Shown here piece after piece: positions 8,701-23,201 of a stretch of 64,000 nucleotides of DNA. The notes under the pieces are model-generated. The model was not told the DNA's origin. It did no database searches and worked only from the letters and a program-made list of their open reading frames with translations. The first letter of the stretch is position 1. Each line of letters opens with the position of its first letter. This DNA is from an uncultured Bacteroidales bacterium (GTDB lineage Bacteria > Bacteroidota > Bacteroidia > Bacteroidales > UBA3824). Location: the NCBI GenBank assembly GCA_905234655.1, contig CAJOJG010000006.1:4709-68708 (forward strand). Direction: 5' to 3'. The translations under genes and the position numbers were made by a program.

Positions 8701-8936
8701 TCCTCTACGACGCTTCTTACATAAGGCTAAAGACTATCGAAATCGCATATACTTTCCCAAAGCTCATGCTCGGTAAGTACGCATTCTCCGACGTCAAGAT
8801 CTACGTCAACGGCAATAACCTCTGGCTTTGGTCGAGGATGCCTGACGACCGCGAAAGCAACTTCGCCGGTGCCTCCAACCAGGGCCAGTATCCTACCGTC
8901 AAGCGTTTCACGATTGGTCTGAAATTTAGTTTGTAA
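5793..8936 (+). CDS. SusC/RagA-family TonB-linked transporter (first of tandem pair, XusA-like)
   Basis: 1047 aa. N-terminal CarboxypepD_reg signature VTLTGTVTDEDGNTLPGVNVFEKGTTNGTITDLDGKY. Plug with VVIVGYGQQRK and GANGVILITTKRG. A SusD gene starts 39 bp downstream. Confidence 0.95.
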   Translation: MKRESIQLRKFVLLLALMICSFDLLAQVTLTGTVTDEDGNTLPGVNVFEKGTTNGTITDLDGKYMLNVRSGATVSFSYIGYDEQEFTVSGTKSINVVLKESSKEIEEVVIVGYGQQRKASVVGAITQTSGKTLERAAGVSDLSSALTGNLPGVVTVTSTGMPGQEEAKITIRGAASWTDGGADPLVLVDGIERPMSSVDVSSVQSISVLKDASATAVYGVKGANGVILITTKRGSEGKAQINVTATSTIKTVSKLPGKYDSYDSYMYRNIAVEHELNLLPENFNLIRTQSFINNYRNQSGEDELGNLISERYPNVDWQDEIFKTHAMAYNASLNISGGNKFVRYFTAVDWANEGDMMNVFDNGRGYKGGYGYNRFNVRSNLDFQLTKSTVFKVNLAGSLGVRKTPWNNSNLGVGDWGISQQWAVFLPQYADGSWGYDYLARPNATNSAVNVAIGGLQYTTNTKITTDFILEQDLSMLTKGLSVKASVSWDNNFNEWQRGVSDMYNDPQYKWIDPETGEVHYKTEKDNQTGLDPDANPIKWSTQGGSVQDWATGRNLTYMAQINWNRNFDKHYITAMGSFQREERVTGSSIPNLREDWIFRLTYNWNDRYFLEYNGAYNGTEKFSSDNRFAFFNSGSIGWMISNEPFMSSIKEKGILDQFKIRASYGEIGNDWYGSRWLYLTEWDLGSGDGNNFVNTAPLSSDRTSSPYQIYKESKVGNPDVHWEVARKFNFGIDYSFLNGLVSGSVDIFKDKRSDVLVGGGDRSVPAYFGQSAPTANLGKVENKGYEIEVKLNKTFGKIRTWANLNMTHAENKIIVKDDAQLLPDYRKQAGYAIGQTRTYLDNGRITNYDELYAAPQTYQFNDQRLMGDYYIVDFNGDGQITEDDQAPWGYSGTPQNTYNATLGIEYKGWSAFAQFYGVTNVTRDVNLTSFGGKFNNVYEQGTWYSEDPSNADIETPRYNSSLFTTGTQFLYDASYIRLKTIEIAYTFPKLMLGKYAFSDVKIYVNGNNLWLWSRMPDDRESNFAGASNQGQYPTVKRFTIGLKFSL

Positions 8937-8975
8937 TTCAGCATGTAATTAAGAAACTTAATTCGTTACATCAAA

Positions 8976-10916
8976 ATGAACATCAACAAGAATTTATTAT
9001 ATGTGTTGCCGGCGGCCATGGCTTTGGCGTTCAGCTCCTGCTCCGACTACCTTGACAAGGAGCCTGATGCCATCGTCAGCTCGGACGATGCCTTCGGTAA
9101 CTTCAGAAACTTCCAGGGTTTCGTCGAGCAAGTCCACCTGGCTGTGCCTACTAAGACGCTCTGCTATTGGAACACCACTTTCAACTGGGGCGAGGACGAA
9201 ATCCTCAGCACCGCCGGCAACTCGCCATACGTCACATACAACATGGACGAAGGCAACTTCCGCGCCTACTTCCAGAACTGGGGCGGCAACCTCACATACC
9301 TCTACGGAAATACCAACCGTGGCAACGACCGTATGGGAAACCACATCCTTAACAGCGCGTGGTACTGCATCCGTAAGTGCAACGTCGGACTGGAGAACCT
9401 CGACAAGCTCGTTAACGCTACTGAAGAAGAGAGGAACACCATTAAAGGCGAACTCCTGTTCTTCCGTGCATGGTGGCACGAAGAGATGCTTATCTTCTTC
9501 GGCGGACTTCCATATCAGGAAGGTGTGCCGGCTGCCAATGACGTGCTTAACGCTCCGAGGATGACCTTGCAGGAGACCGCTAAGAAGGCCGCCGAGGACT
9601 TCGAGGCTGCTGCCGCTCTCCTTCCTAACAACTGGGACAAGTCGTCCGTAGGCGCGGCTACTTCGGGTCATAACGAACTGCGCATAACGAAAGCCACTGC
9701 ATTGGCATACGCAGGCAAGATGTACCTCTACGCAGCAAGCCCGCTCGCTGAGAACGGCGCACAGACCGGCGGAAAAAGCGGTAAGACTTACGCCTATAAT
9801 GAGGAATTGGCTAAACAGGCCGCCACTGTCCTCGGAAACTGCATAGACCTCCTCGAATCAGGCAAGACTCCCTACGAACTTGCATCTTACGAGTACGAAG
9901 ACATCTATGACCATAAGAAAGCCGCTGGCGTGACCAACAGCTTCTCCGAAATCTTCTGGACACAGAACAACGGCTGGCGTCAGCCTGGTGGAAAGGAGGC
10001 GATGATGCGCGGATGTCCCTTCGGCACTAACGGCGCACGCTGGGGCGAGGCTACTAACTGGGGACCCAACAAGAACGGTCTTTGCGAAGGAGGCTTCTGC
10101 TGCACTCCTACCGCCAACTATGTCAACTACGCATACGGCACTGCCGACGGCTACCGTCTCGAAGACGCTCCGGCGGAGAGTTTCGACAAGACCCATCCTT
10201 TCAGGAACCGCGACACCCGTTTCTACCACGACATCGTATTCGACGGTTTCGAGTACATCAACGGCGACACAAAGGATTACGAAGACTACAAATATGCAAC
10301 TCTCTACACAGGCGGTTTGATGAGGGATCCTGAGAAGAACAGCCGCACAGGCTACTTCTGCCAGAAACTCTTCCCCCATACCTGCAACAAGGTTGACGAT
10401 GCTTTCGGATACGGCAACGCCGGCGACAGCTACCTGCCTTACCTTCGCATGGCCGATGTTTACCTGATGTACGCCGAGGCAGGCGCAGCGGTAAGCGGCG
10501 CGACAGCTAAGTTCGGCTCGACGAGTAAGACCGCCCGCGACGCTATTAATGTACTCCGCGACCGTGTCAGCGTAGCCCACGTCCTCGACATGTACGCTGG
10601 CGACAAGAACACATTCATGGACGAAGTAAGGCGCGAGAGGGCGTGCGAGTTGGCTTTCGAAGGCTTCCGCTATAACGACCTCGCTCGTTGGCTGCTCCTG
10701 ACCGAGTATCCTTACACCCTCAAGACCTCGCAGGAGTTCACCCGCGACGACCCCGACTTCGACTTCTCGAAGCAGGATCCGAGGGACGCTAAGGTTGCTA
10801 ACTGGACTGAGAAGGAAATCCTTACCCGCAAGTACGACGCTAAGCATTATTTCTTCCCGTTCAGAGATGCCGATGTTTACATCTACGAAGGGTTCTCGCA
10901 GAATCCTGGATGGTAG
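8976..10916 (+). CDS. SusD/RagB-family glycan-binding lipoprotein (XusB-like)
   Basis: 646 aa. Lipobox AFSSCSDYLDKEPD. SusD hallmarks are present: RAWWHEEMLIFFGG, MADVYLMYAEA, RRERACELAFEGFRYNDLARW. Confidence 0.95.
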   Translation: MNINKNLLYVLPAAMALAFSSCSDYLDKEPDAIVSSDDAFGNFRNFQGFVEQVHLAVPTKTLCYWNTTFNWGEDEILSTAGNSPYVTYNMDEGNFRAYFQNWGGNLTYLYGNTNRGNDRMGNHILNSAWYCIRKCNVGLENLDKLVNATEEERNTIKGELLFFRAWWHEEMLIFFGGLPYQEGVPAANDVLNAPRMTLQETAKKAAEDFEAAAALLPNNWDKSSVGAATSGHNELRITKATALAYAGKMYLYAASPLAENGAQTGGKSGKTYAYNEELAKQAATVLGNCIDLLESGKTPYELASYEYEDIYDHKKAAGVTNSFSEIFWTQNNGWRQPGGKEAMMRGCPFGTNGARWGEATNWGPNKNGLCEGGFCCTPTANYVNYAYGTADGYRLEDAPAESFDKTHPFRNRDTRFYHDIVFDGFEYINGDTKDYEDYKYATLYTGGLMRDPEKNSRTGYFCQKLFPHTCNKVDDAFGYGNAGDSYLPYLRMADVYLMYAEAGAAVSGATAKFGSTSKTARDAINVLRDRVSVAHVLDMYAGDKNTFMDEVRRERACELAFEGFRYNDLARWLLLTEYPYTLKTSQEFTRDDPDFDFSKQDPRDAKVANWTEKEILTRKYDAKHYFFPFRDADVYIYEGFSQNPGW

Positions 10917-10952
10917 TAGTATAAATCTTATTATATCAATTGGAAAAATAAT

Positions 10953-13883
10953 ATGAAAAGCAATAAGTATATATCAGGCATTGCAGCAGGCACGTTGGCT
11001 TTTACGGCGTTGATAGCCAATCCGGCGACAGTTTCGGCGCAGGAAGAGGAAGGCGACACTGTTGCAGCCAAGGCGGTTCACACTCTTTTCCGTGACCAGG
11101 ACCCGGACAGGATTCTTGGCGGTGTCGTCACGGTGGACTATACTGAGCTGCAAAAGAAAAACTTCGGTTCGGTCAATGCTATTTCATTAGCCAATACCGG
11201 CAATTTCTGGGGCTATGGCGGCGGGCTGGTGCTCATTGACGGTCTTCCCGCCAACAACTCGGTGCTTTACGACGACATCGAGTCCATCACTTACATCAAA
11301 GGTGCGCAGGCTGTGGCTCTCTACGGCAGCCGTGGCGTTAACGGCGTGATTCTCGTAAAGACTAAGCGCGGAAAGAACGAGCCTATCTCCATCACTGCAA
11401 GAGGCAACTTCGGAATGGGATTCGACAAGGCATACCCGGAGTTACTCGGCTCGGCTGAGTACATGATGTTCTACAACAAGGCTTTGGAGAACGACGGACT
11501 CTCGGCTAAGTATTCTGACGCAGACATCTATTATTCTGCATCCGGCGAGAACCCATATCTCTACCCCGATGTCGACTTCTATTCTTCTGACTATATCAAG
11601 AACCACTTCTGCGGCGGCGACGTGTCTATGATAATAGAAGGCGGCAACGACAAAGCCACTTTCTACACCGACATCATGGCGGAGCGTAGTGGCGACCAGT
11701 TCAAGTTTGGCGAGGCTAAGAATAACTACGCCAGCACACTCGCAATCCGTGGTAACGTGGACATCCACCTTACAGATAGGATTTCCGCAGAGGTCGACGC
11801 TAATGTCAATATGCATGACGTAAGGTCTTATGTGGGAACGAGCTACTGGTCGGCGGCTGCTTCTCAGCGTCCTAACCGTATCGCCCCGTTAATTCCGTTG
11901 AGCATGATTTCGTCCACCGCCCTTGACGCGCTGGATCTTATGAAGGAAAACACCAACATCATTGATGGCAAGTATTTCCTTTCTGGTACTCAGGAAGATG
12001 CAACAAACGTGTTCGCCAATATCTACTCCGGTGGAAAGTCAAAAGCCACTAACCGCCAGTTCCAGTTCAACACTCAGTTGCACTTTGACCTGCGTGACTT
12101 GCTCGAAGGACTATCCTTCCACACACAGTTCGGTATGGAGTACGCCACGACATACACCACAAGCTTCAACAACCAGTATGCGGTGTACATCCCGACATGG
12201 TTCGACCTTGGCAATGGCGAGGTAATCACTAACCTCAAGAAGGAGAACGAAAATAAGAAGACTGGTACACAGAATGTCGGTGGCAGTAGCACACGACGCA
12301 TGTTCGCCTTCAACGCACACCTTGACTACGACCACTCGTTCGGCGACCATACTGTTGGCGGCATGATTCTCGTCAACGGTTATCAGAAGGCTGTCGATGG
12401 TGAGTACCACAAGACCTCTAACGCCGACCTCTCTTTCAATGCAAACTACAATTTTGCAAAAAGGTACTACGCGGACGTTACATTTGCAATCCCCCACTCG
12501 GCTAAGCTTGCTGAAGGCCACAGGAACGGCTTCTCGAAGTCCATGTCCCTCGGCTGGAACATCGCCAACGAGCCTTTCTTCGACAAGAGCAGCGTCATCA
12601 ACTCTCTTACATTCTCGTTTTCCGCATCTGACCTCTGCGAAGACATAGACATTTCCGACTACTACATGTACGCTGGCACATGGTCGTTCGAGGAGGGCTG
12701 GTACTCCTGGCGCGAGGGCAACGGCACTCAGCCCACATACTCCGTACGTGGCGAGAACCCCGAACTCGACTTCATCCACCGCAAGGAATTGTCCACTAAT
12801 GTAAAGGTGTCCATGCTCCAGAACAGCTTGGTATTCGACTTCTCGATGTTCACCTCCAAGCAGGCCGGTCTTATCATCACACCGTCCCTCGTTCCGTCAT
12901 ACTTCACCTCGTATTACCCCGGCGCGTCCTTCATCTCGTACATAAACAACAACGAGAACACATTCAAGGGCATCGATTTCGGCATCAACTACACAAAACA
13001 GTTTGGCGAAGTTACAGTCGGTCTCGGAGTATTTGGCTCCACAATGGTTGCAAAAGCCGGCAAGCGTGATGAATCCAACATACCGGACCTTGAAGGATAC
13101 AATCTTGACGCTGATGGCAACAAGATTTACATTGATAAGGATGGCAATGCTACAAAGAGCGAGTTTGATGCCAATGGTATGCAAAATGGACCTTCGATGT
13201 CCACCGACTACCGCAAGCGTGAGGGCAAATACCTCGACGGCGTCTGGGGGTACGAGAGCCTTGGCTACTTCAAGACCCAGGAAGAAATCGACAACTATGC
13301 TACTTACGCCCTCGGCAGCGACAAGCCTCTCAGGCCCGGCGACATCAAGTACAAGGATCAGAATAACGACGGCGTCATCGACTCCAAGGACCAAGTCGAA
13401 CTCGGCAGGGCCGGATGGTACGGCGCACCATTCTCCATGGGCTTTAACGTCAGCGCAAGCTACAGGAACTTCACGCTTTTCGTCGCTGGTCATGGCAATT
13501 TTGGCACGACAAGCGTAAAGAACAGCGAGTACTACTGGGTTAACGGTGAAGACAAGTACACCGCCGCTGTCCGCGACACATGGACTGAAGAAAACCCCAA
13601 CGCCAAGTATCCGCGCCTTACTACTGGTAACGGCAACAACAACTTCCAGACATCAGACTTCTGGACATTCAAGAACAACGTGTTCTACCTCGACAAAATC
13701 CAGCTCTCATACGACTTCCCGTCGTCGATGTTCGAGAACAACAGGATTATCAAGGGATGTTCGGTATACGTGTATGGCAGCAACCTGCTTACCATTTCCA
13801 AGGAGCGCGAGCTTCTCGAGCGCAGTTACGGTTCGGCACCGCAGTATCGTTTCTACAACTTCGGTGTAAAAGTAAATTTCTAA
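10953..13883 (+). CDS. SusC-family transporter, second of tandem pair (XusC-like), lacking the CarboxypepD_reg N-domain
   Basis: 976 aa. The signal peptide is followed directly by the plug (VLIDGLPANN...ITYIKGAQAVALYGSRGVNGVILVKTKRG). It ends ...RFYNFGVKVNF and is followed by a SusD gene. Confidence 0.9.
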   Translation: MKSNKYISGIAAGTLAFTALIANPATVSAQEEEGDTVAAKAVHTLFRDQDPDRILGGVVTVDYTELQKKNFGSVNAISLANTGNFWGYGGGLVLIDGLPANNSVLYDDIESITYIKGAQAVALYGSRGVNGVILVKTKRGKNEPISITARGNFGMGFDKAYPELLGSAEYMMFYNKALENDGLSAKYSDADIYYSASGENPYLYPDVDFYSSDYIKNHFCGGDVSMIIEGGNDKATFYTDIMAERSGDQFKFGEAKNNYASTLAIRGNVDIHLTDRISAEVDANVNMHDVRSYVGTSYWSAAASQRPNRIAPLIPLSMISSTALDALDLMKENTNIIDGKYFLSGTQEDATNVFANIYSGGKSKATNRQFQFNTQLHFDLRDLLEGLSFHTQFGMEYATTYTTSFNNQYAVYIPTWFDLGNGEVITNLKKENENKKTGTQNVGGSSTRRMFAFNAHLDYDHSFGDHTVGGMILVNGYQKAVDGEYHKTSNADLSFNANYNFAKRYYADVTFAIPHSAKLAEGHRNGFSKSMSLGWNIANEPFFDKSSVINSLTFSFSASDLCEDIDISDYYMYAGTWSFEEGWYSWREGNGTQPTYSVRGENPELDFIHRKELSTNVKVSMLQNSLVFDFSMFTSKQAGLIITPSLVPSYFTSYYPGASFISYINNNENTFKGIDFGINYTKQFGEVTVGLGVFGSTMVAKAGKRDESNIPDLEGYNLDADGNKIYIDKDGNATKSEFDANGMQNGPSMSTDYRKREGKYLDGVWGYESLGYFKTQEEIDNYATYALGSDKPLRPGDIKYKDQNNDGVIDSKDQVELGRAGWYGAPFSMGFNVSASYRNFTLFVAGHGNFGTTSVKNSEYYWVNGEDKYTAAVRDTWTEENPNAKYPRLTTGNGNNNFQTSDFWTFKNNVFYLDKIQLSYDFPSSMFENNRIIKGCSVYVYGSNLLTISKERELLERSYGSAPQYRFYNFGVKVNF

Positions 13884-13906
13884 CCTGTTAATTAGTTATT
13901 GGCAAA

Positions 13907-15670
13907 ATGAACAAGACATTATATATCGCCGCTTGCATTGCCTTGGGATGCTCTCTCAATGCGTGTGACGACCTGATGGAGCCGGCTATAGACAACCTCA
14001 ACGAGTTTTCTTCGCTCTACGGTACTGTCAATCAGGCTGCACATGTACTCGGCAATGCTTACATAAAACTGCCTTACCCGGCAATGCCCGAGACCGACCT
14101 TGCTACGGACGACGCTGTCACCAACGACGCCGACAACAGCTTCAGGCTCATGGCGGGCGGCAGCTGGACCGCAACGTCCAACCCCGTTGACCGCTGGAAG
14201 GACGCCTACTACGCCATCCAGAACGTCAACATCTTCCTCGAGAACATCGACAACATCAACTGGAGCGAAGACCCGGTTTATGCAGAGATGATTCGCGACC
14301 ACATGAGGGGCGAGGCTTTGGCTCTCAGGGGAATATTCCACTACTTCCTCCTCCAGGCTCACGCCGGCAAGGTCGGCGGAACCCTCATGGGTGTGCCGAT
14401 CCACACCGTGTCTGAAAACGGTTCTTCGGATTTCAACCAGCCGCGTAATTCGTTCCAGGAATGTTACAACCAGATTATGAAGGACCTCGACGATGCCGCC
14501 GCGCTTCTCCCAGAAGTTTACGTCAACGTGAAGGAAGAGGACGTGCCCGCCAAGTACAAGGAAAAAGGTGGCACGGCATACGACTACAACCGCGCACAAG
14601 GCGAGCTTTGGTCTGGCAAGGTGGACGGTCGAATCATCAAGACCTTCAAGTCGCTCCTCTCGCTCATGGCCGCAAGCCCCGCTTACGGCACAGAGACTTG
14701 GGAGAACGCCGCTAAGTACGCTTCCGAGGTCGTCACGTCCCTCGGCGGCATCTCGGCTCTGACAAGCAACAGCATCGCCTGGTTCAACGACAAGGAATAC
14801 GTTGAAAACGGCGTTTCAGCACTCGTCGTCCCCGACGTGGCGATATGGTGGAACGGCCGTAACAAGACCGCCGACTACGAGGCGGACAACTTCCCGCCAT
14901 CGCTCTACGGCAAAGGCCGCGTGAACCCCACTCAGAACCTTGTCGACGCTTTCCCGATGGAAAACGGCTACCCAATCACCGACCCTGCGTCTGGCTATAA
15001 TGACCAGGACCCCTACACCGGGCGCGACCCGCGCCTTGCCAAGTACATCCTCTTCGACCAGGGCGTGATTGAAAACGCCAACAACGACGTCATCACCACC
15101 GGCGACTACGCCGACAACAAGGACGGACGCGACAAGGATCTCAGCATCTCCACCCGCACCGGCTACTATATGAAGAAGCTCCTGCGCACAGACGCCAACC
15201 CGAGTTCGTCGAGCAAGTCGGAGCAGTACCACCTCATCCCCCGTATCCGCGTCGAGGAGATGTTCCTCACTTACGCCGAGGCCGCCAACGAGGCCTGGGG
15301 ACCGACCACTGGCTCTCCGTCCGCATACGATGTCATCAAGCAAATCCGCCAGTACGCCGGCATAACCGGCGGCGACGCTTACCTCGAGTCCATCAAGGGC
15401 GACAAGGACAAGATGCGCGACATGATCCGTAACGAACGCCGCATCAACCTCTGCTTCGAGAACAAGCGTTTCTGGGATCTCCGCCGTTGGAACGTGTCGC
15501 TCTCCGAAGCCGCCAAGGGCGTGAAGATTACCAAAGACGGTAACACAAGGAAGTTCGAGTACATCGAGGTTGAAAAACGCGATTTCAAGGATTACCAGAC
15601 TTACTGCCCGATTCCCGCAGCCGAGATTAACAAGTTCCCCGCCCTCCAGCAGAACGACGGCTGGCAGTAG
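13907..15670 (+). CDS. SusD/RagB-family lipoprotein (XusD-like)
   Basis: 587 aa. Lipobox LGCSLNAC. Motifs: RGEALALRGIFHYFLLQ, VEEMFLTYAEAANEA, RNERRINLCFENKRFWDLRRW. Confidence 0.95.
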   Translation: MNKTLYIAACIALGCSLNACDDLMEPAIDNLNEFSSLYGTVNQAAHVLGNAYIKLPYPAMPETDLATDDAVTNDADNSFRLMAGGSWTATSNPVDRWKDAYYAIQNVNIFLENIDNINWSEDPVYAEMIRDHMRGEALALRGIFHYFLLQAHAGKVGGTLMGVPIHTVSENGSSDFNQPRNSFQECYNQIMKDLDDAAALLPEVYVNVKEEDVPAKYKEKGGTAYDYNRAQGELWSGKVDGRIIKTFKSLLSLMAASPAYGTETWENAAKYASEVVTSLGGISALTSNSIAWFNDKEYVENGVSALVVPDVAIWWNGRNKTADYEADNFPPSLYGKGRVNPTQNLVDAFPMENGYPITDPASGYNDQDPYTGRDPRLAKYILFDQGVIENANNDVITTGDYADNKDGRDKDLSISTRTGYYMKKLLRTDANPSSSSKSEQYHLIPRIRVEEMFLTYAEAANEAWGPTTGSPSAYDVIKQIRQYAGITGGDAYLESIKGDKDKMRDMIRNERRINLCFENKRFWDLRRWNVSLSEAAKGVKITKDGNTRKFEYIEVEKRDFKDYQTYCPIPAAEINKFPALQQNDGWQ

Positions 15671-15713
15671 TCAAATGACAAATTAATTAACATTAATTGA
15701 ATTTACAAGCATT

Positions 15714-16754
15714 ATGAACGTTTCAATAAAACATATATCGCTTTCGCTTGCAGCAGCCTCGCTTTTTGCGATGGGCTCCTGCAAGAACAGCGACATCGAA
15801 TTTGACGATTACAAGGAGCAGACGGTGTACTTCGCTACGCAGACGCCCGTGAGGACTCTTGTAATGGGAAAGGATTTCGATAACGACAATACCCTCGACA
15901 AGCAGCACCGCTGCCGCATCGGCGCAACAATGGGCGGCTCTTACACGGGAAGCAACGGCACAGTGGATTTTGTTGTGGACAATTCGCTCTGCGACAACAT
16001 CTTCTTCGATGATGCCGCCACCCAGCCAGTGGAGCCCATGCCGTCGGCGTACTACAAACTTGGAGAGTCGCCGATTAGATTCGGCGGTCAGATGACTGGC
16101 TTCGTCGATGTCGAGTTGACGGACGCATTCTTTGCCGACCCGCTCTCCGCTACCAAGCACTACGTAATTCCATTGAGGATGACTAATCAGAGCGGATTCG
16201 ACAGGATTCTTACCGGCGAGTATGACGCTGCTGTTTACAGCACTGCGCCTGCGCTTACTAACGCCGGTGCATGGTCGGTTCTGCCGATGAACTACGTGCT
16301 GTACTGCGTGACCTACATGAGCAAGTACGGCGGATACTATCTCCGTCGCGGCGTTGACAATATCAACGGCACAGTGGTTAAGCGTGAGTTCAAGAACGAG
16401 TACCAGATTGAGGACGATGTAACTGATCTTGTGGTAACAAATGGCCTTAACAAGGTAACTCTCACTGTAAAGTACCTCCTCGACAATGTCGAGACCTATT
16501 ATGACCTCGTGATGACCTTCGACGACGCTCAGAAATGCACAGTCACCTCCGGCACCTCCGGCGTGACTGTCACAGGCTCCGGCGAGTTTGTCGATGATGG
16601 CGCGGGAAAGTACTGGGGAGACATCACACGCGACCAGCTTACCCTCAAGTATGAAATCAACGACGGCACAAACACAATCAGCACCACCGATACCCTTGTG
16701 TCGCAGCGCACTGGTTTGAAATTTGAGACATTCTCTTATACTTACAAACAATAA
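15714..16754 (+). CDS. DUF1735-like surface lipoprotein (XusE position of xus clusters)
   Basis: 346 aa. Lipobox AMGSCKNSDIEFDD. TVYFATQTPVRTLVMG and HYVIPLRMTN are typical of the BT_3987/DUF1735 type. It occupies the position directly after the second SusD, as in known xylan PULs. The near full-length antisense ORF 15723-16751 was rejected. Confidence 0.7.
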   Translation: MNVSIKHISLSLAAASLFAMGSCKNSDIEFDDYKEQTVYFATQTPVRTLVMGKDFDNDNTLDKQHRCRIGATMGGSYTGSNGTVDFVVDNSLCDNIFFDDAATQPVEPMPSAYYKLGESPIRFGGQMTGFVDVELTDAFFADPLSATKHYVIPLRMTNQSGFDRILTGEYDAAVYSTAPALTNAGAWSVLPMNYVLYCVTYMSKYGGYYLRRGVDNINGTVVKREFKNEYQIEDDVTDLVVTNGLNKVTLTVKYLLDNVETYYDLVMTFDDAQKCTVTSGTSGVTVTGSGEFVDDGAGKYWGDITRDQLTLKYEINDGTNTISTTDTLVSQRTGLKFETFSYTYKQ

Positions 16755-16766
16755 TCTTAGACCATC

Positions 16767-19436
16767 ATGAACATTTCAAGATATATATATCCAATGGCTG
16801 TCGGCGCGGTGCTGCTAAGTTCGTGCGCCGACGACCTCCAGAAAAGCATCGTGGTAGACAAGCCCGAGTCCGTAATCGAGGACGAGCGTTATAAAGACCT
16901 CAACGCGCTCAAGTCATACGTCCAGGGCGGCAATCTCAAGATTTCCGCCTCTGTATCTGCCGACGACATCCTCGAGGGCGGCCTGACGGCTGCTGTGTCT
17001 GTCAACAACTTCAACGAACTCGCCGCCGAGGCTTCGTTCGCCCACGGCGCAGTGGTCAAGGACGACGGCACGCCCGATTTCACCAAGATCCAGAGCCTCG
17101 CCAACACCGCCGAAAAATACGGCATGACTGTGTTCGGCGGCCCGCTGGTGTGGAGCGACAATCAGAGCGCAAAATATCTTTCGGGTCTTATTGCCCCGAA
17201 GGTGGTGGAAGTCGTTGTTCCTGACACCCCCGTGGAAGTACCTGATTTCGTTACCAACGGTTCTTTCAACGAGAACAATGTCAACAACTGGGCAAACAAC
17301 TGGCAAGGCCCCACATTCTCCCGTACCTCGGAAGGAAGTGGCTATTGCATCGAATATACTATCGGCGAGGCCGGCGCCAACCAGTGGGACAAGCAGGGCA
17401 TATACACTCTGCCAGTTGCGATGGAACAGGGCAAGACTTATGTCGTAAAGATAAAGGCAAAAGCCTCAAACCCGCCGTCAGACGATCCTGAGACCGATGC
17501 TGCAAAAGTTTTTGGACTTTGGCCTATTTGGTCCACAAGTGAGAACAAGAACGAATGGGGCGGCAGCAACGACGTGCAGTACCTTGCTAGTTATGCTGTT
17601 TTCTCTGAATGGACAGAGTACACATGGAAATTCGAGGCTTCGTTCCCCCACGACAAATTGCAGTTTGTGTTCGGCAAGCTCGGCGGCAGCATGTATTTCG
17701 ACGACCTTAGTGTCGTGGAGGCTGGCTCCGACAACGAAATGGTAGCCAACGGTACATTCGACGCAGAGTCCATCGACGGATGGTCAAACAACTGGCAGGG
17801 CCCGACTTACGCTCGCATCGAGGACAAGAACTACTTCATCGAATATCAGTGCGGCGAGGCTGGCACCAACCAGTGGGACAAGCAGGCCATCTACACTCTT
17901 GGCACACCGATGCTCCAGGGCTCCAAATACACTGTCAAACTCAAAGTTCGGGCAGAGAATGAAGGTACTGTCGGACTCTGGCCCATTTGGTCAACAAGCG
18001 AAAACAAGAACCAGTGGGGCGGAAGCAATGACGTTCAGTACCTCGACACTTACGAGGTCGGCACTTCATGGAAGGAGCTCACATGGGAGTTCAACGCATC
18101 GTTCCCACATGATCAGTTGCAGTTCGTATTTGGAACCCAAAGCGGCAACATCTATTTCGACGACTTGTCGGTGGACGGCCCCGCCGCTGCTCCCACTCCG
18201 CAGCCGGGCGGCTCAACATGGGAGAATGTCCTCGCCAACCCCGACTGCGAAGGTACTGACGTCAGTGCATTCGTGTCAAAGGAATACCCGGGAACAGAAT
18301 CGATTGCAGCCAAGATTGTTGATGGCGAAGGCGTGGACGGCGGCCGTTGTGTTGTCGTCAACTCCGCAAAAAAAGTTTCCGAATCTTGGGATTCGCAGTT
18401 CTGGATTGTAACCCCGGAGTTTTACCCCGAAGGCACTACGTTCAAGCTGGAGTTTGACTACAAGGCGTCGGCTGCCGTGACGGTCGGCACTCAGGCTCAT
18501 GAAGCACCGGGCAATTACAACCACTGGAGCTTCGCCGGCGACATTAATTTCACCACCGAATGGCAGCATTACGAAAAGACGTTCACTCTTGACGCCAACC
18601 AGACTGCAAAACAGGGTTTCAAGTCTTGCGCATTCAACCTTTCTGTTGACAGCGACGTAACCTATTATTTCGACAACATGCAGGTTCTGTTTGAACATAA
18701 GGACGAGCCTACGAAGGAACTCACCGACGAGGAGAAGTCCGACACCCTCAAATGGGCTCTTAATGAATGGCTCAAGGGCATCATGGACGCTACCAACGGT
18801 ACTATAACCAATTGGGATGTGATAGCCGACCCGTTGTCCAACTCTGTTGATATTGAAGGCTCTGATTTGTATGCGCTCCAGAAGTCCAGTGCTCCTAATG
18901 GCGACAAGGCGGCGAGCGGTCAGGCTTTCTATTGGCAGGATTACATCGACAATGTGGAATTAGTCCGCATGGCTATTGACACTACGCGCAAGTATTTTGC
19001 CGGCGACAAGTCGCAGCTCAAACTTTTCGTAAGCGAATATGGCCTTGAAAAAGACTCCAAGAAGGTGTCGAGCCTTTTGCATTGGATTGACGCCTGGGAA
19101 GACGACGACACCAAAATCGACGGCATCAGCGTACAGTTGCACTTGACGACATCGGACAATGTCGACGGTGTAAAGTCCGCGCTCACGGCTCTCGCACAGT
19201 CGGGAAAGCTCATCAGGATTGGCTCGCTCGACGTGGCAGGTGCTGACGACGAAAAAGTCGCCGAAATGTACAAGGAAGTCGCAAAAGCTTACCTCTCGTC
19301 CGTACCGGCCGCCCAGCAGTATGGAATCAACCTCTCGGGCATCCAGAGCGGTCTCGACTACACAAGCCTTTGGACTGAAGAATACAAGCGCAATGCTTCG
19401 TACAAGGCGTTTGTAGAGGGATTAGGAGGAAAGTAA
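16767..19436 (+). CDS. GH10-derived lipoprotein with three inserted CBM4/22-like modules, predicted catalytically inactive (xylan-binding SGBP candidate)
   Basis: 889 aa. Lipobox LLSSCADD. The GH10 fold is split by an insert after KYLSGLIAPKVV, the same point as in the active paralog at 33357. The GH10 acid/base motif WDVxNE reads WDVIAD (A-D codons 18825-18830). The nucleophile motif I(S/T)ELD reads IGSLD (Ser codon 19224-19226). GNAMK reads EASFA and GHxLxWH reads GGPLVWS. Two tandem, clearly related CBM repeats lie at about 17250-17720 and 17740-18175, with a third module at about 18215-18700. Confidence 0.8.
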   Translation: MNISRYIYPMAVGAVLLSSCADDLQKSIVVDKPESVIEDERYKDLNALKSYVQGGNLKISASVSADDILEGGLTAAVSVNNFNELAAEASFAHGAVVKDDGTPDFTKIQSLANTAEKYGMTVFGGPLVWSDNQSAKYLSGLIAPKVVEVVVPDTPVEVPDFVTNGSFNENNVNNWANNWQGPTFSRTSEGSGYCIEYTIGEAGANQWDKQGIYTLPVAMEQGKTYVVKIKAKASNPPSDDPETDAAKVFGLWPIWSTSENKNEWGGSNDVQYLASYAVFSEWTEYTWKFEASFPHDKLQFVFGKLGGSMYFDDLSVVEAGSDNEMVANGTFDAESIDGWSNNWQGPTYARIEDKNYFIEYQCGEAGTNQWDKQAIYTLGTPMLQGSKYTVKLKVRAENEGTVGLWPIWSTSENKNQWGGSNDVQYLDTYEVGTSWKELTWEFNASFPHDQLQFVFGTQSGNIYFDDLSVDGPAAAPTPQPGGSTWENVLANPDCEGTDVSAFVSKEYPGTESIAAKIVDGEGVDGGRCVVVNSAKKVSESWDSQFWIVTPEFYPEGTTFKLEFDYKASAAVTVGTQAHEAPGNYNHWSFAGDINFTTEWQHYEKTFTLDANQTAKQGFKSCAFNLSVDSDVTYYFDNMQVLFEHKDEPTKELTDEEKSDTLKWALNEWLKGIMDATNGTITNWDVIADPLSNSVDIEGSDLYALQKSSAPNGDKAASGQAFYWQDYIDNVELVRMAIDTTRKYFAGDKSQLKLFVSEYGLEKDSKKVSSLLHWIDAWEDDDTKIDGISVQLHLTTSDNVDGVKSALTALAQSGKLIRIGSLDVAGADDEKVAEMYKEVAKAYLSSVPAAQQYGINLSGIQSGLDYTSLWTEEYKRNASYKAFVEGLGGK

Positions 19437-19519
19437 TTTTTGTGTTAGTAATGTTTTTTATTTTATTATTTAGTTATTTAGTACAAATTCAATTAGTTTA
19501 ATTAAATTTTGGTTTAGTG

Positions 19520-19566
19520 CAGGGGAAAAGTTGTGTTTTTTTATAACTTACGCCCCTGCTTTTTCC
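19520..19566 (+). terminator. Stem-loop terminator candidate
   Basis: GCAGGGGAAAAGTT...AACTTACGCCCCTGC followed by TTTTT, inside a 156-bp AT-rich spacer after the stop at 19436. Confidence 0.5.
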
Positions 19567-19592
19567 TTATTAATGACTAAAAAGAATGATTT

Positions 19593-20900
19593 ATGAAACA
19601 AGCACTTAAATATATTGCCCTTGGCATAATCTTGTCAGCGGGCGCGCCGCTCGCCTCATGCGGAGATGACGATGAGGTAATCGACTACACAACGAAGCCG
19701 CAGGAGGAGGAGAAACCCGATACGAGCGGCACGAAAAAGGTCCTCGACGAGAACTCCGGCCTTAAGGAGTACCTCGACCGCGACAAGCACCCGATGTTCA
19801 AGGTTTCCGGCGCGCTCGACGTGACCGAGTTCCATAATAACAACAACGGAATCGCCGACATAGTTAAGGTTAACTTCGATGAGATTGTGGCAGGTAATGC
19901 GATGAAGTACGCCTCGTGCGTCAACTGGAACGGCGACCTCAACTATGACCGCGTCAAGCAGTTCGTCGCCGATGCGAAGGCCAATGGGCTGTCGATATAC
20001 GGCCACACCCTCGCCTGGCATTCCCAGCAGCAGCCGGCCTACCTGCTCGGGCTGATGTCCGACGGCATGACGCAGGCCGAGAGGCGCGAGGTTTTGACCA
20101 CCGCCATGCAAAAATGGATAAAGGGCATGATGGAGGCTACCGACGGCTTTGTGAAGGCGTGGGACGTATGTAACGAGCCAATCTCCGGCAAGGACGGCGA
20201 CGGCGACGGAATCTACGACCTCCAGGACTATGACAATGCCAATATCGACCCGACGTCGGTCCAGTCCGGCGTGTTCTACTGGCAGTATTACATGGGCGAC
20301 CTGGAGTATGTGCGCACGGCTGTGGCTTGTGCCCGCAGGTACTTCAAGGGCAAGGCGGCAGACCTCAAGCTCTTCGTCAACGACTATAACCTCGAGTCCG
20401 ACTGGGACGACAATGCAAAGGTCAAGAGCCTTGTGAAATGGATTGAGAAGTGGGAGTCTGACGGTGTTACAAAGATTGACGGCATTGGCACGCAGATGCA
20501 CATCAGCTGTTATGAGAACGCCGACATCCAGAAGAGCATCGAGGACCATATAGTCAAGATGTTCGAGATTATGGCTGCAAGTGGCAAACTTTGCCGCATC
20601 TCCGAGCTCGACATGGGATATGTGCGCGGCGACCGGCGTTGGGGCGCATCGCCGTTGAAGACTGCCGAAGTCACCGCCGCCGAGCATAAAAAGATGGCGG
20701 AGTTCTACAGGTTCATTGTCAAGAAGTACCTCGAAATAATCCCCGTCGACCAGCAGTACGGCATCTGCCAGTGGTGCTTGACGGACGCGCCTGAAAAGTC
20801 AGGCTGGAGGGGCGGCGAGCCTGTCGGATTTTGGACCGAGGGGTTCAAGGAGAAGAAAGCCACGTTCTATGGTTTTGCCAACGGACTGGCCGAGAAGTAG
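19593..20900 (+). CDS. GH10 endo-1,4-beta-xylanase, lipoprotein, single domain
   Basis: 435 aa. Lipobox LASCGDDDEV. Motifs: AGNAMKY, YGHTLAWHSQQP, acid/base WDVCNEP, FVNDYNLE, GIGTQMH, nucleophile CRISELDM. Confidence 0.9.
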   Translation: MKQALKYIALGIILSAGAPLASCGDDDEVIDYTTKPQEEEKPDTSGTKKVLDENSGLKEYLDRDKHPMFKVSGALDVTEFHNNNNGIADIVKVNFDEIVAGNAMKYASCVNWNGDLNYDRVKQFVADAKANGLSIYGHTLAWHSQQQPAYLLGLMSDGMTQAERREVLTTAMQKWIKGMMEATDGFVKAWDVCNEPISGKDGDGDGIYDLQDYDNANIDPTSVQSGVFYWQYYMGDLEYVRTAVACARRYFKGKAADLKLFVNDYNLESDWDDNAKVKSLVKWIEKWESDGVTKIDGIGTQMHISCYENADIQKSIEDHIVKMFEIMAASGKLCRISELDMGYVRGDRRWGASPLKTAEVTAAEHKKMAEFYRFIVKKYLEIIPVDQQYGICQWCLTDAPEKSGWRGGEPVGFWTEGFKEKKATFYGFANGLAEK

Positions 20901-20919: not shown

Positions 20920-22221
20920 ATGATTCGTATGAAAAACACATTCAAATATTTGGCACTTTGTCTTATCGCCGGATTGACTTTCGCGTCCTGCGGCGATGAT
21001 GACGAGGTCATGGACTACACAAAGCCGGACAACAACGAGCCGGAGCCTGCGCCGGTGTCCATTGACGAGGTTTTCGCCAATGATGTCCACGTAGAAGGCC
21101 GCTATCTGAAGGACGGCAGCGGCAATGTCATTAATCTCCACGGCATGGCGCAGACCTACAGTCCGTGGTTCAACCGTGTTGACGGCAAGGAGACTTGGAG
21201 CGGCTACGATGTCGCCGGATGCCTTAGCGTCAATCAGGAAAAGCTCAGGAAAATCATGGATGCCGGTTGGTGCATGGATTTTGTGCGCCTGCACATGGAT
21301 CCGCATTGGACAGTGAAGGACAAGAACGACAACGGCGGCGAGGGCACTGCCCACCTTTTCTATGACGAGGACAGGTTCAAGAAGTATCTTGACGAAGTGT
21401 TTGTGCCGATGGCGGAGTACATCCAAAGCCTTGGCATGAGGGTTTTGATGCGCCCTCCGGGAGTATGCCCGCAGACTATCGCGCTTAACGACGAGTACCA
21501 CAAGTACATGATTAAGGTCTGGACGATAGTCGCAAGCCACAAGAAGCTCAAGAACAATCCCAAAATCATGTTCGAGCTTGCCAACGAGCCGGTCAACTTC
21601 CATGCGTCCGACGGCAGCGAGGGCGCGAGCGGCGGCTTGATTGACAAGGAGCTCAGCGAGTTTTTCCAAAGCGTCGTCGACAAGATCCGCGGCCTTGGCT
21701 GTAACAATATCCTGTGGGTTCCCGGCACAAGCTGGCAGCAGAACTACCAGGCATACGTCAACTATCCCATAAAGGGCGACAACATCGGCTATGCCGTCCA
21801 CTGTTATCCGGGATGGTACGGCAGCGACTGCTACCAGCAGACCGGCGAGATTGCGCCCGACATGTGGCGTGGCTCCGAGGGTGGATATAAAGGCTTTAAG
21901 AAAGGCTGGGACGAGTCCGTCACAAACGGCGTCGCGCAGACTAACCCCATTATTGTAACCGAGATGGACTGGGCGTCCCAGGCGTTCAAGGGCCGTACTT
22001 GGGGCAGCTCGATAACCGGCACTGCCGGTGGACAGGGCTTCGGCGCAAACTTCAAGAAAATCATGGACGAGACTGGAAACGTAAGCTGGCTTACGTTCGT
22101 TTGGGACTATGATCTGGCATCCTTCGACCCGAACCACAAGTCCGATTCGAGCGATTTCCTCTATGACCCAGAGTCCGGCGTGTACCCTGTCTACCAGTGG
22201 TTCAAGGCTTATCGGAAATAA
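20920..22221 (+). CDS. GH5-family glycoside hydrolase lipoprotein (xylan-PUL-associated; subfamily not determinable here)
   Basis: 433 aa. Lipobox FASCGDDDEV. Motifs: NLHGMAQTYSPWF, the acid/base context MFELANEPVNF, and the nucleophile context PIIVTEMDWA. The antisense ORF 20917-22137 was rejected. Confidence 0.8.
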   Translation: MIRMKNTFKYLALCLIAGLTFASCGDDDEVMDYTKPDNNEPEPAPVSIDEVFANDVHVEGRYLKDGSGNVINLHGMAQTYSPWFNRVDGKETWSGYDVAGCLSVNQEKLRKIMDAGWCMDFVRLHMDPHWTVKDKNDNGGEGTAHLFYDEDRFKKYLDEVFVPMAEYIQSLGMRVLMRPPGVCPQTIALNDEYHKYMIKVWTIVASHKKLKNNPKIMFELANEPVNFHASDGSEGASGGLIDKELSEFFQSVVDKIRGLGCNNILWVPGTSWQQNYQAYVNYPIKGDNIGYAVHCYPGWYGSDCYQQTGEIAPDMWRGSEGGYKGFKKGWDESVTNGVAQTNPIIVTEMDWASQAFKGRTWGSSITGTAGGQGFGANFKKIMDETGNVSWLTFVWDYDLASFDPNHKSDSSDFLYDPESGVYPVYQWFKAYRK

Positions 22222-22253
22222 TTATTGACAAACAGTTCCTAATCAAAAATAAA

Positions 22254-23201
22254 ATGTTGAAAAAAAATATAACTTCATTGTTTGGCGCGGTGGCGCTTGG
22301 CTTTTTGATGGCGTCGGGCGTTGCGTCGTGCGGTGACGACGACGATTCTGTCATCGACTATACAAAGCCTGACCCGGAGCCGGAGGCTGTGGATTCTACG
22401 GACAATCCCACGACCGAAGAACCGAAGATGTCGATTTTTCTGTGTTTTGGACAGTCGAACATGGAAGGCAATGCCGCCGTCGAGGATCAGGACAGGGTCG
22501 ATGTCCCTTCCAATTTCAAGAACATGATTGTCGCAAAGGGCGATGCCGACCATTATGGCGCGGCGCGGTACACATGGCGCAAGGCCGACCCGCCGCTTGC
22601 GAGGTTCACGACCGGGCTTACTCCTGCGGACTATTTCGGCAGGAAGATGGTCGAGAAGCTTGGAGCTGACCATGAGGTCGGGATTGTGATGGTAGCTATC
22701 GGCGGTGCGTCCATCGAGGCTTTCGAGAAGGACAAGTGCAAGGAATATTGTAGCCGCACAGACCATGCCGACTGGTACAAGAACTATCTCGCCGAGTATG
22801 ACAATAATCCCTACGGTGTACTTGTCACTGCGGCTAAGGCGGCACAAAAAAGCGGTGTAATCCGTGGCATACTCCTCCATCAGGGCGAGACTAACAACAC
22901 CGACCCGACATGGCCGGAGACTGTGAAGGCTATCTACAACAACCTCCTGACCGACCTCGGACTCGACGCGGCAAAATGTCCGCTCCTTGCTGGCGAAATG
23001 CTCCGGCAGGAAGAAGGCGGTATATGCTGGGGGCATAATGCGGTCATCGCCACGCTCCCGACCGTAATCCCGACTTCGTATGTCATATCGTCCGAGGGCT
23101 GTAAGGGCAACGGCGTCGACGGCTTCCATTTCTGCGCCGAGGGCTACAGGATTCTCGGCGAGCGGTACGCCGCAAAGATGATTAGCGTAATGAACAAATA
23201 G
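22254..23201 (+). CDS. SASA/CE6-type carbohydrate O-acetylesterase lipoprotein (likely acetylxylan esterase)
   Basis: The start was moved to MLKKNITSLFGAVALGFLMASGVASCGDDDD (ATG 22254). Motifs: GQSNMEGN (SGNH Ser), VAIGGASI, LLHQGETN, DGFHFCAEGY. Confidence 0.8.
   Translation: MLKKNITSLFGAVALGFLMASGVASCGDDDDSVIDYTKPDPEPEAVDSTDNPTTEEPKMSIFLCFGQSNMEGNAAVEDQDRVDVPSNFKNMIVAKGDADHYGAARYTWRKADPPLARFTTGLTPADYFGRKMVEKLGADHEVGIVMVAIGGASIEAFEKDKCKEYCSRTDHADWYKNYLAEYDNNPYGVLVTAAKAAQKSGVIRGILLHQGETNNTDPTWPETVKAIYNNLLTDLGLDAAKCPLLAGEMLRQEEGGICWGHNAVIATLPTVIPTSYVISSEGCKGNGVDGFHFCAEGYRILGERYAAKMISVMNK

Follow-up and report, generated by a model that had tools for sequence, protein, structure and literature searches.

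In the polysaccharide utilisation locus (PUL) PUL-XylL of Bacteroides ovatus, the surface lipoprotein BACOVA_03431 resembles glycoside hydrolases of family GH10, shows no activity on xylans and binds both birch glucuronoxylan and corn xylan (PMC4491172). Rogowski et al. (2015) described it as an inactive GH10 acting as a surface glycan-binding protein (SGBP), at a time when no other natural inactive GH10 had been described, and drew the analogy to the chitin-binding lectins derived from GH18 (PMC4491172). Searching the literature for other characterised inactive GH10s returned only BACOVA_03431 itself and papers citing it. The second point of reference is the group of Xyn10C-type endoxylanases (P. 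bryantii Xyn10C, B. intestinalis Xyn10A and Pm25; PMC7848910), whose barrel is split by an insert between beta3 and alpha3, and which are active and keep the motifs GNAMK, GHxLxWHxQ, WDVxNE, NDYN and ISELD. Here we analyse a gene for a GH10-like lipoprotein, P0001, in a 64,000-nucleotide stretch of DNA from an uncultured Bacteroidales bacterium (lineage UBA3824; assembly GCA_905234655.1, contig CAJOJG010000006.1, positions 4,709 to 68,708; hereafter the window). P0001 is probably a non-catalytic SGBP of a xus-type xylan PUL, derived from a Xyn10C-type endoxylanase and functionally like BACOVA_03431.

P0001 shares with the Xyn10C-type endoxylanases the split barrel, the position of the insert, the type of carbohydrate-binding module (CBM) within it and the slot after the xusE gene, but has lost all five of the motifs that those enzymes keep. 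Like BACOVA_03431, it is a GH10-derived lipoprotein encoded after two SusC/SusD pairs and a DUF5627 gene, with the nucleophile lost, the -2 subsite disrupted and a non-barrel insert at the same point of the barrel. The two nevertheless differ in detail: their barrels are 27-28% identical, the nucleophile position is Ser in P0001 and Asp in BACOVA_03431, and the BACOVA_03431 insert neither aligns with the CBMs of P0001 nor matches Pfam CBM_4_9. The GH18-derived lectins likewise keep a hydrolase fold as a carbohydrate binder after catalytic loss, although they belong to another fold family, lie outside PULs and bind via the former active site rather than via appended CBMs. The gene and the parts of its product are as follows.

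16767-19436, + strand: gene of the dead GH10 lipoprotein P0001, 889 aa (open reading frame and translation; Pfam GH10 and CBM_4_9)
16767-16826, + strand: signal peptide with lipobox LLSSC, the codon of Cys20 at 16824-16826, then acidic ADD (reading of the sequence)
16884-17204, + strand: N-terminal part of the GH10 barrel, aa 40-146, ending at the KYLSGLIAP insertion point (alignments)
17244-17720, + strand: CBM module a, aa 160-318, of the Xyn10C/PDB 4MGQ type, with W207 and Q210 (Pfam CBM_4_9; match to PDB 4MGQ, E 3.7e-13)
17730-18176, + strand: CBM module b, aa 322-470, a tandem duplicate of module a, with W370 and Q373 (58% identity to module a)
18213-18701, + strand: CBM module c, aa 483-645, of a second CBM4_9-like type (third Pfam stretch; beta-sandwich in the model)
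18708-19433, + strand: C-terminal part of the GH10 barrel, aa 648-889, with Asp688 and Ser820 (alignments)

The reading frame is intact. Pfam recognises Glyco_hydro_10 (PF00331) in two stretches (E 1.6e-24; score 87 bits, cut-off 22.1 bits) and CBM_4_9 (PF02018) in three (E 1.2e-15). The insert follows KYLSGLIAP (aa 136-144), between beta3 and alpha3, a position common to all homologues and, as a preliminary description of the window had pointed out, to the window's own active CBM-bearing GH10 at 33357-35729. An AlphaFold2 model (mean pLDDT 83.6) shows the barrel split by three beta-sandwich modules, and Foldseek matched this model to GH10 xylanases with E values of about 1e-10 to 8.5e-13 and a target-normalised TM-score of ~0.5 for barrel-only matches, a comparison that confirms the fold and is not a residue-level superposition. 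By profile and by (beta/alpha)8 barrel fold, P0001 thus belongs to GH10 and, with its internal CBM insert and its place after xusE, to the Xyn10C type. The lipobox (SC/ADDL) is kept in 10/10 members of the dead clade of P0001 that were checked, and Cys20 together with the acidic ADD, a Bacteroidota lipoprotein export signal, predicts a surface lipoprotein. The gene starts 12 nt downstream of the end of the DUF5627 gene and can therefore be placed in one operon with it; a scan of 15600-19700 for promoters and terminators gave no signal above the shuffled background.

The catalytic machinery of GH10 has been lost at several levels. In the acid/base motif, which reads WDVIAD (aa 683-688), Glu is replaced by Asp688 (codon 18828-18830), and in the nucleophile motif, which reads IGSLD (aa 818-822), Glu is replaced by Ser820 (codon 19224-19226). 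EASFA (aa 88-92) stands in place of the GNAMK of active enzymes, GGPLVWSDN (aa 124-132) in place of GHTLAWHxQ, and SEYG (aa 756-759) in place of NDYN. Five active-site residues besides the catalytic pair (Asn89, Lys92, His125, His130 and Asn687) are thereby also replaced, and the -2/-1 subsite residues are absent. The fold-level motifs FYWQDY (aa 721-726) and DGISVQLH (aa 785-792) are retained, as are Q790, H792, D822 and W869 of the C-terminal barrel. All of these motif changes had been listed in the preliminary description, and the open reading frame and the alignments bear out each of them.

We aligned the 120 best homologues and the window's two intact GH10s with MAFFT, finding that about 115 of the 120 keep the full active-site set. 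The exceptions are the five clusters P0001 to P0005, each of which lacks one or both catalytic Glu residues. Their acid/base and nucleophile motifs, respectively, read:

P0001: WDVIAD and IGSLD
P0002: WDVVKD and VSELD
P0003: WDVVSE and ISALD
P0004: WDVVAD and ISALD
P0005: WDVVAD and IGSLD

A true catalytic Glu at a shifted position would have undone the earlier claim of catalytic loss. In the phmmer alignment to solved GH10s, IGSLD falls on the ITELD nucleophile motif, and the alignments with homologues and solved structures contain no substitute Glu near Ser820; the sole acidic residue nearby is D822, which is conserved in all GH10s. P0001 therefore lacks the Glu in both WDVxNE and I(S/T)ELD that characterises active retaining GH10 xylanases, and is predicted not to act as one.

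Within the dead clade, positions in the N-terminal half of the cleft (equivalents of Asn89, Lys92, His125, Trp129 and His130) vary freely, Q790, H792, D822, W869 and Y758 are invariant, and 21 further barrel positions are invariant in the dead clade only and not common to active enzymes. The persistence of these five cleft residues, together with the chemical capability of Asp to act as acid/base and the pairing of a nucleophile Glu (VSELD, ISELD) with an Asp acid/base in relatives of the same genus, might suggest that P0001 is still an enzyme, weakly active or changed in activity (transglycosylase-like, lyase-like, or acting on decorated xylan), in which Asp688 would be the acid/base and the nucleophile would be supplied by another residue or by a group of the substrate. 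We consider this very unlikely. The nucleophile position is Ser820 with only the universal D822 nearby, Asn687, His125, His130, Asn89 and Lys92 have gone as well, and the catalytic pair (acid/base / nucleophile) takes the states D/S, D/A, E/A and D/E across orthologues, a pattern of relaxed constraint rather than of a new, fixed mechanism. Moreover, the nucleophile change in BACOVA_03431 is milder (Glu to Asp), and that protein is nonetheless inactive on xylans (PMC4491172).

The CBMs resemble those of active enzymes more closely than the barrel does theirs. The type-A modules a and b (58% identity between them) share 50-60% identity with the CBMs of active xylanases and up to 66-68% with those of other dead-clade members, while the barrel of P0001 is 28-37% identical to active-enzyme barrels. 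Module c shares 42-61% identity with modules of homologues of both kinds, active and inactive. In a set of 50 homologues, again of both kinds, W207, W370 and Q373 are invariant and Q210 nearly so. With the CBM_4_9 profile, the beta-sandwich and conserved aromatic residues, these modules are predicted to bind ligand. The Xyn10C-like Pm25, from termite gut, offers an experimental guide: its CBM4 tandem accounts for most of its binding to xylan, a catalytically dead full-length E546A mutant still binds xylans and wheat bran, and the dead catalytic module fails to bind bran when taken by itself (PMC7848910). The equivalence of W207 and Q210 to the binding residues of Pm25 (Y213, Q216, Y257 and W259) is one of spacing only. 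Because the CBMs are conserved with those of active xylanases, and because of the Pm25 experiments, we infer by analogy that P0001 would bind xylan mainly via its CBMs, with the barrel as a frame that perhaps retains a residual half-cleft.

Alternatively, P0001 could be a structural or docking part of a SusC/D-XusE outer-membrane complex that binds no glycan, with the barrel serving protein contacts and the CBM-like modules acting as spacers. This would account for purifying selection on a barrel whose sugar-contacting residues vary, for the 21 clade-specific invariant barrel residues absent from active enzymes, and for the tight linkage to the DUF5627 gene (the 12-nt gap). It would not account for the (near-)invariance of the signature residues W207, Q210, W370 and Q373 across active and inactive homologues, nor for the 50-60% identity of the CBMs to those of active xylanases; CBMs of this type, besides, bind xylan in Pm25 (PMC7848910). 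We regard the docking explanation as unlikely, and since docking is compatible with glycan binding it may instead be an extra function of the protein.

The preliminary description had also proposed that catalytic loss went together with the gain of a third CBM. The third module is indeed present, as a tandem copy of module a; the two events, by contrast, appear to be unlinked. P0001 and P0002 share the layout A-A-C, P0003 has A-A, and the syntenic orthologues P0004 and P0005 have two type-C modules and no type A. Three modules are found in active homologues too: those of 907-946 aa have A-C-C layouts. Because active homologues have as many modules and orthologues swap them, CBM gain is, on this comparison, not tied to loss of catalysis.

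The dead barrel is under purifying selection and is not that of a decaying pseudogene. The P0004 locus L114, from another metagenome, carries a PUL fully syntenic with that of the window. Between the two, neighbouring genes are 62-94% identical (dN/dS 0.06-0.15), the N-terminal part of the dead barrel is 83% identical (dN/dS 0.15) and the C-terminal part 64% identical (dN/dS 0.20). Compared with a second locus, L134, the barrel flanks give dN/dS of 0.125 and 0.142 with unsaturated dS (0.36-0.40). Over the two comparisons, dN/dS is 0.13-0.15 for aa 1-150 and 0.14-0.20 for the C-terminal part of the barrel. The reading frame is intact in the five clusters, which are 41-60% identical. It might be argued that a gene that has lost its catalytic residues, and that evolves faster than its neighbours (the whole gene is 52% identical to the L114 orthologue, below the 62-94% of the neighbours), is a functionless pseudogene in slow decay, redundant beside the intact GH10 downstream. 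The low overall identity arises, however, because the CBM cassette has been exchanged, and not from decay; and with an intact frame of 889 codons here, intact frames in all relatives, barrel dN/dS of 0.13-0.20 and a conserved lipobox, we find this explanation scarcely credible.

Further evidence for exchange comes from the comparison with L134. A tract of 2 kb within the gene is 99-100% identical at the nucleotide level to that locus:

17031-19070, + strand: 2-kb tract 99-100% identical to L134, where its counterpart lies at approximately 10265-12304 (sliding-window identity; dS per region)

The tract spans all three CBMs and portions of both barrel halves. Its flanks inside the dead GH10 gene are 75-86% identical to L134 and the neighbouring genes have dS of 0.4-2.4. 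Since the tract is near-identical while its flanks and neighbours have diverged, the pattern indicates a recent exchange of this central segment of 2 kb among lineages that had already diverged, an assembly chimera being less likely. The two loci also differ downstream: in L134 (12797-20389) no single-domain GH10 directly follows the dead GH10, GH5 coming at once, and a 607-aa GH10 lies further downstream, past a PD40 gene.

The family to which the window belongs consists of one genus with 25 species representatives, and three of these share the PUL of the window, each with different damage to its slot gene: G158 reads WDVVKD at the acid/base and VSELD at the nucleophile, G160 reads WDIVSD and ISELD, and G152 reads WTVINE and VTALD. 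An intact GH10 lies just downstream of the slot gene in all three, as well as in L114. These differences would fit a history in which catalysis ceased to be needed early on and each lineage then lost the catalytic residue that happened to mutate first.

Taking these results together, we favour the reading of P0001 as a non-catalytic SGBP, and picture its working as follows. Lipobox and acidic tail suggest that the protein would receive a lipid anchor at Cys20 and be exported for display on the external side of the outer membrane. There, its three CBM4_9-type modules would capture xylan chains, as their conservation with those of active xylanases and the Pm25 experiments suggest. The barrel, with Asp as acid/base, Ser as nucleophile and no -2/-1 subsite residues, is predicted from its sequence not to cleave them; it may have been kept by selection as a scaffold that presents the CBMs, as a residual binding cleft in its C-terminal half, or as both. 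Cleavage would fall to the downstream intact lipoprotein GH10 and GH5, and the products would be imported via the two SusC/D pairs. Several considerations weigh against this picture. Binding and inactivity in the P0001 clade are predictions, and surface exposure is likewise read from the sequence. The cleft residues of the N-terminal half vary even between close orthologues, which means that the barrel may bind no sugar at all. Module c is a putative glycan binder. Lastly, BACOVA_03431, the sole tested precedent, is at most a distant relative, and function is transferred from it by analogy. The core of the preliminary description, a pseudo-xylanase working as a surface xylan binder, fits the available tests and the BACOVA_03431 precedent, although three of its side claims fail as they were written.

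The genes around P0001 are consistent with its assignment to a xylan PUL.

5793-15670, + strand: tandem SusC/SusD pairs of a xus-type xylan PUL, at 5793-8936, 8976-10916, 10953-13883 and 13907-15670 (Pfam)
15714-16754, + strand: XusE-like lipoprotein (BT_3987-like_N and DUF5627), homologue of BACOVA_03430 (Pfam; PDB 3N91, E 5.3e-65)
19593-20900, + strand: intact single-domain GH10, a lipoprotein (Pfam; catalytic motifs intact)
20920-22221, + strand: GH5 (Pfam)
22197-23201, + strand: SASA-type esterase (Pfam)

The order is accordingly SusC-SusD-SusC-SusD-DUF5627-dead GH10-intact GH10-GH5-SASA-type esterase, with the intact single-domain GH10 where it had been described. We recovered PUL-XylL by searching Bacteroides genomes with the sequence of PDB 3N91, which is BACOVA_03430, the product of the gene just upstream of BACOVA_03431 (100% match; the genome with this match, G033, was taken as B. 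ovatus). Its order is SusC, SusD, SusC, SusD, 03430, 03431 (750 aa), GH30, GH98, so that the slot gene is followed by GH30 and GH98 there, as against GH10, GH5 and an esterase in the window PUL. BACOVA_03431 itself lies at L102:11925-14177 and reads WNIIGN and VSDLS at the two catalytic motifs. L062 was rejected as PUL-XylL: the genome serving as B. ovatus representative has its two DUF5627 genes at L062 and L089, both precede active-type GH10s, and neither is 3N91. Similarly, P0243, P0203 and P0163 were rejected as BACOVA_03430, none of them matching.

A second PUL further downstream comprises a SusC/D pair, an SGBP-B-like protein and the active GH10 with CBMs at 33357. P0001 had been called clearly a paralog of this enzyme, a statement that does not hold: the enzyme keeps all catalytic motifs, and its identity to P0001 is only 23-29%, making it a distant relative; P0001 has higher identity, 32-37%, to Xyn10C-type enzymes of other species. 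Its branch among Xyn10C-type enzymes is very long (1.86 changes per column), and it is preceded by the SGBP-B-like gene, not by a DUF5627 gene.

To see what usually occupies the slot, we took 80 loci in species-representative genomes from an alignment of DUF5627 homologues and read the next downstream gene in each. Active-type GH10 motifs were found in 64 (one gene being cut by a contig end), in agreement with the earlier statement that the slot normally holds an active Xyn10C. Eight loci, all of rumen Prevotella, have a GH10 of ~550 aa with the nucleophile replaced, mostly reading FDLIDE and LSNFD. Two loci (L025 and L039, from uncultured Bacteroides) keep both Glu residues and have lost subsite residues, two have other gene types, one of them a GH43 with CBM6, and four stop at a contig edge. 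In L025 and L039 the gene at 11063 keeps WNAVNE and ISELD but no longer has GNAMK, NDYN or the His of GH..WH; its product may represent a stage between active and dead enzymes, or may be an enzyme whose specificity has changed. Two candidates produced by forced alignment were dropped: L076 is the GH43 with CBM6, and L056 (432 aa) has no GH10 motifs in the alignment and was excluded without a Pfam check. The DUF5627 gene and GH10 of L029 (CAVBFV010000025.1, labelled Lachnospiraceae bacterium) are near-identical to those of the Segatella copri loci L020 and L026, and the contig is probably mis-binned or mislabelled.

The Prevotella dead clade (L055, L060, L063, L069, L070, L072, L073 and L075; gene at ~11110-12800, product ~550 aa) resembles P0001 in being GH10-derived, in lying directly after the DUF5627 gene and in having the nucleophile replaced, its motif being LSNFD or, in some members, LYNFD, ISNFD or LSNLD. 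It differs in that most members keep the acid/base Glu. G033 has a second DUF5627 gene followed by a degenerate GH10 of 584 aa (L113, G033:C1:3137800-3145600), which reads WDIASC and ISDLN and is distinct from BACOVA_03431. Both the Prevotella proteins and L113 are shorter than P0001, carry a single module in which Pfam finds no CBM, and have nearest active relatives other than those of the window clade; the literature searched contained no characterisation of either. Where Bacteroides genomes have an intact slot gene next to a 03430-like gene, it is degenerate in every case (11/11); at a twelfth locus, L106, the frame of the slot gene is split. We also searched the C-terminal barrel against 1.84 billion cluster representatives and assessed the 148 nearest (50%-identity clusters): 114 keep both Glu residues, and one or both are absent in 34. 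Going by these sequences, dead GH10s of the P0001 family are common.

Whether these proteins share one origin was examined with trees of the GH10 barrel columns and of the neighbouring DUF5627 genes. In a tree of all GH10s together, the dead clades were joined with a Shimodaira-Hasegawa-like approximate likelihood ratio (SH-aLRT) support of 96, a grouping that carries a long-branch warning. With the window clade constrained to group with the active Prevotella-type clade, the log-likelihood exceeded that of the free quick search by 22.5 units (p-AU 0.73 in the approximately unbiased, AU, test). Added singly, the dead clades attach to different active clades: the window clade is sister to L041, the Prevotella dead clade to L068, and the BACOVA_03431 clade to a clade of Paludibacter, Sphingobacterium, Cyclobacteriaceae, Marinilabiliaceae, Prolixibacteraceae and an unclassified Bacteroidales metagenome-assembled genome. 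In the DUF5627 tree the window again pairs with L041 and the Prevotella dead clade with L068, and the BACOVA_03430 clade falls within the broader group just listed, closest to Sphingobacterium loci. A single clade of all DUF5627 neighbours of dead GH10s is rejected (log-likelihood difference 134, p-AU 0.0002). Three results, from the AU test, from the trees with single dead clades and from the neighbouring genes, led us to reject a single origin of all dead GH10s as probable long-branch attraction.

Because the separate placements and the DUF5627 tree agree, and a single clade of the neighbours is rejected, P0001 and BACOVA_03431 are probably convergent rather than orthologous. The simplest reading of the trees would be at least three independent catalytic losses, a count to be read with two points in mind: L041 is itself on a long or basal branch, and the groups were defined with the trees already known. 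From this we put forward, as a proposition whose chances we judge to be even, that in Bacteroidota xylan PULs the change from a Xyn10C to a non-catalytic binder has recurred, with three or more independent occurrences (in the window, BACOVA_03431 and rumen Prevotella clades), and that the dead barrel persists as a conserved frame while lineages exchange the CBM cassette by recombination.

Inactive enzymes serving as SGBPs had been called known in principle in the preliminary description. The precedent does exist, and goes further than that wording, since an exact, tested case in the same PUL slot was published in 2015 (PMC4491172). An inactive-GH10 SGBP is therefore not new in kind; what would be new here is the probable separate origin, the retention of Xyn10C-type CBMs and the loss of both Glu residues. 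Against the sole natural case described in 2015, the data suggest a widespread class of dead GH10s with several origins. Annotation pipelines label such proteins "endo-1,4-beta-xylanase" (P0002 is so named in NCBI), and xylanase gene counts for gut and rumen Bacteroidota would therefore be inflated. If the proposed reading is true, the class offers a natural system for studying the route from enzyme to binder and which features of a dead barrel selection maintains. Exchange of the CBM cassette would then retune the xylan that is captured, and could help to explain differences in xylan preference at the level of strains.

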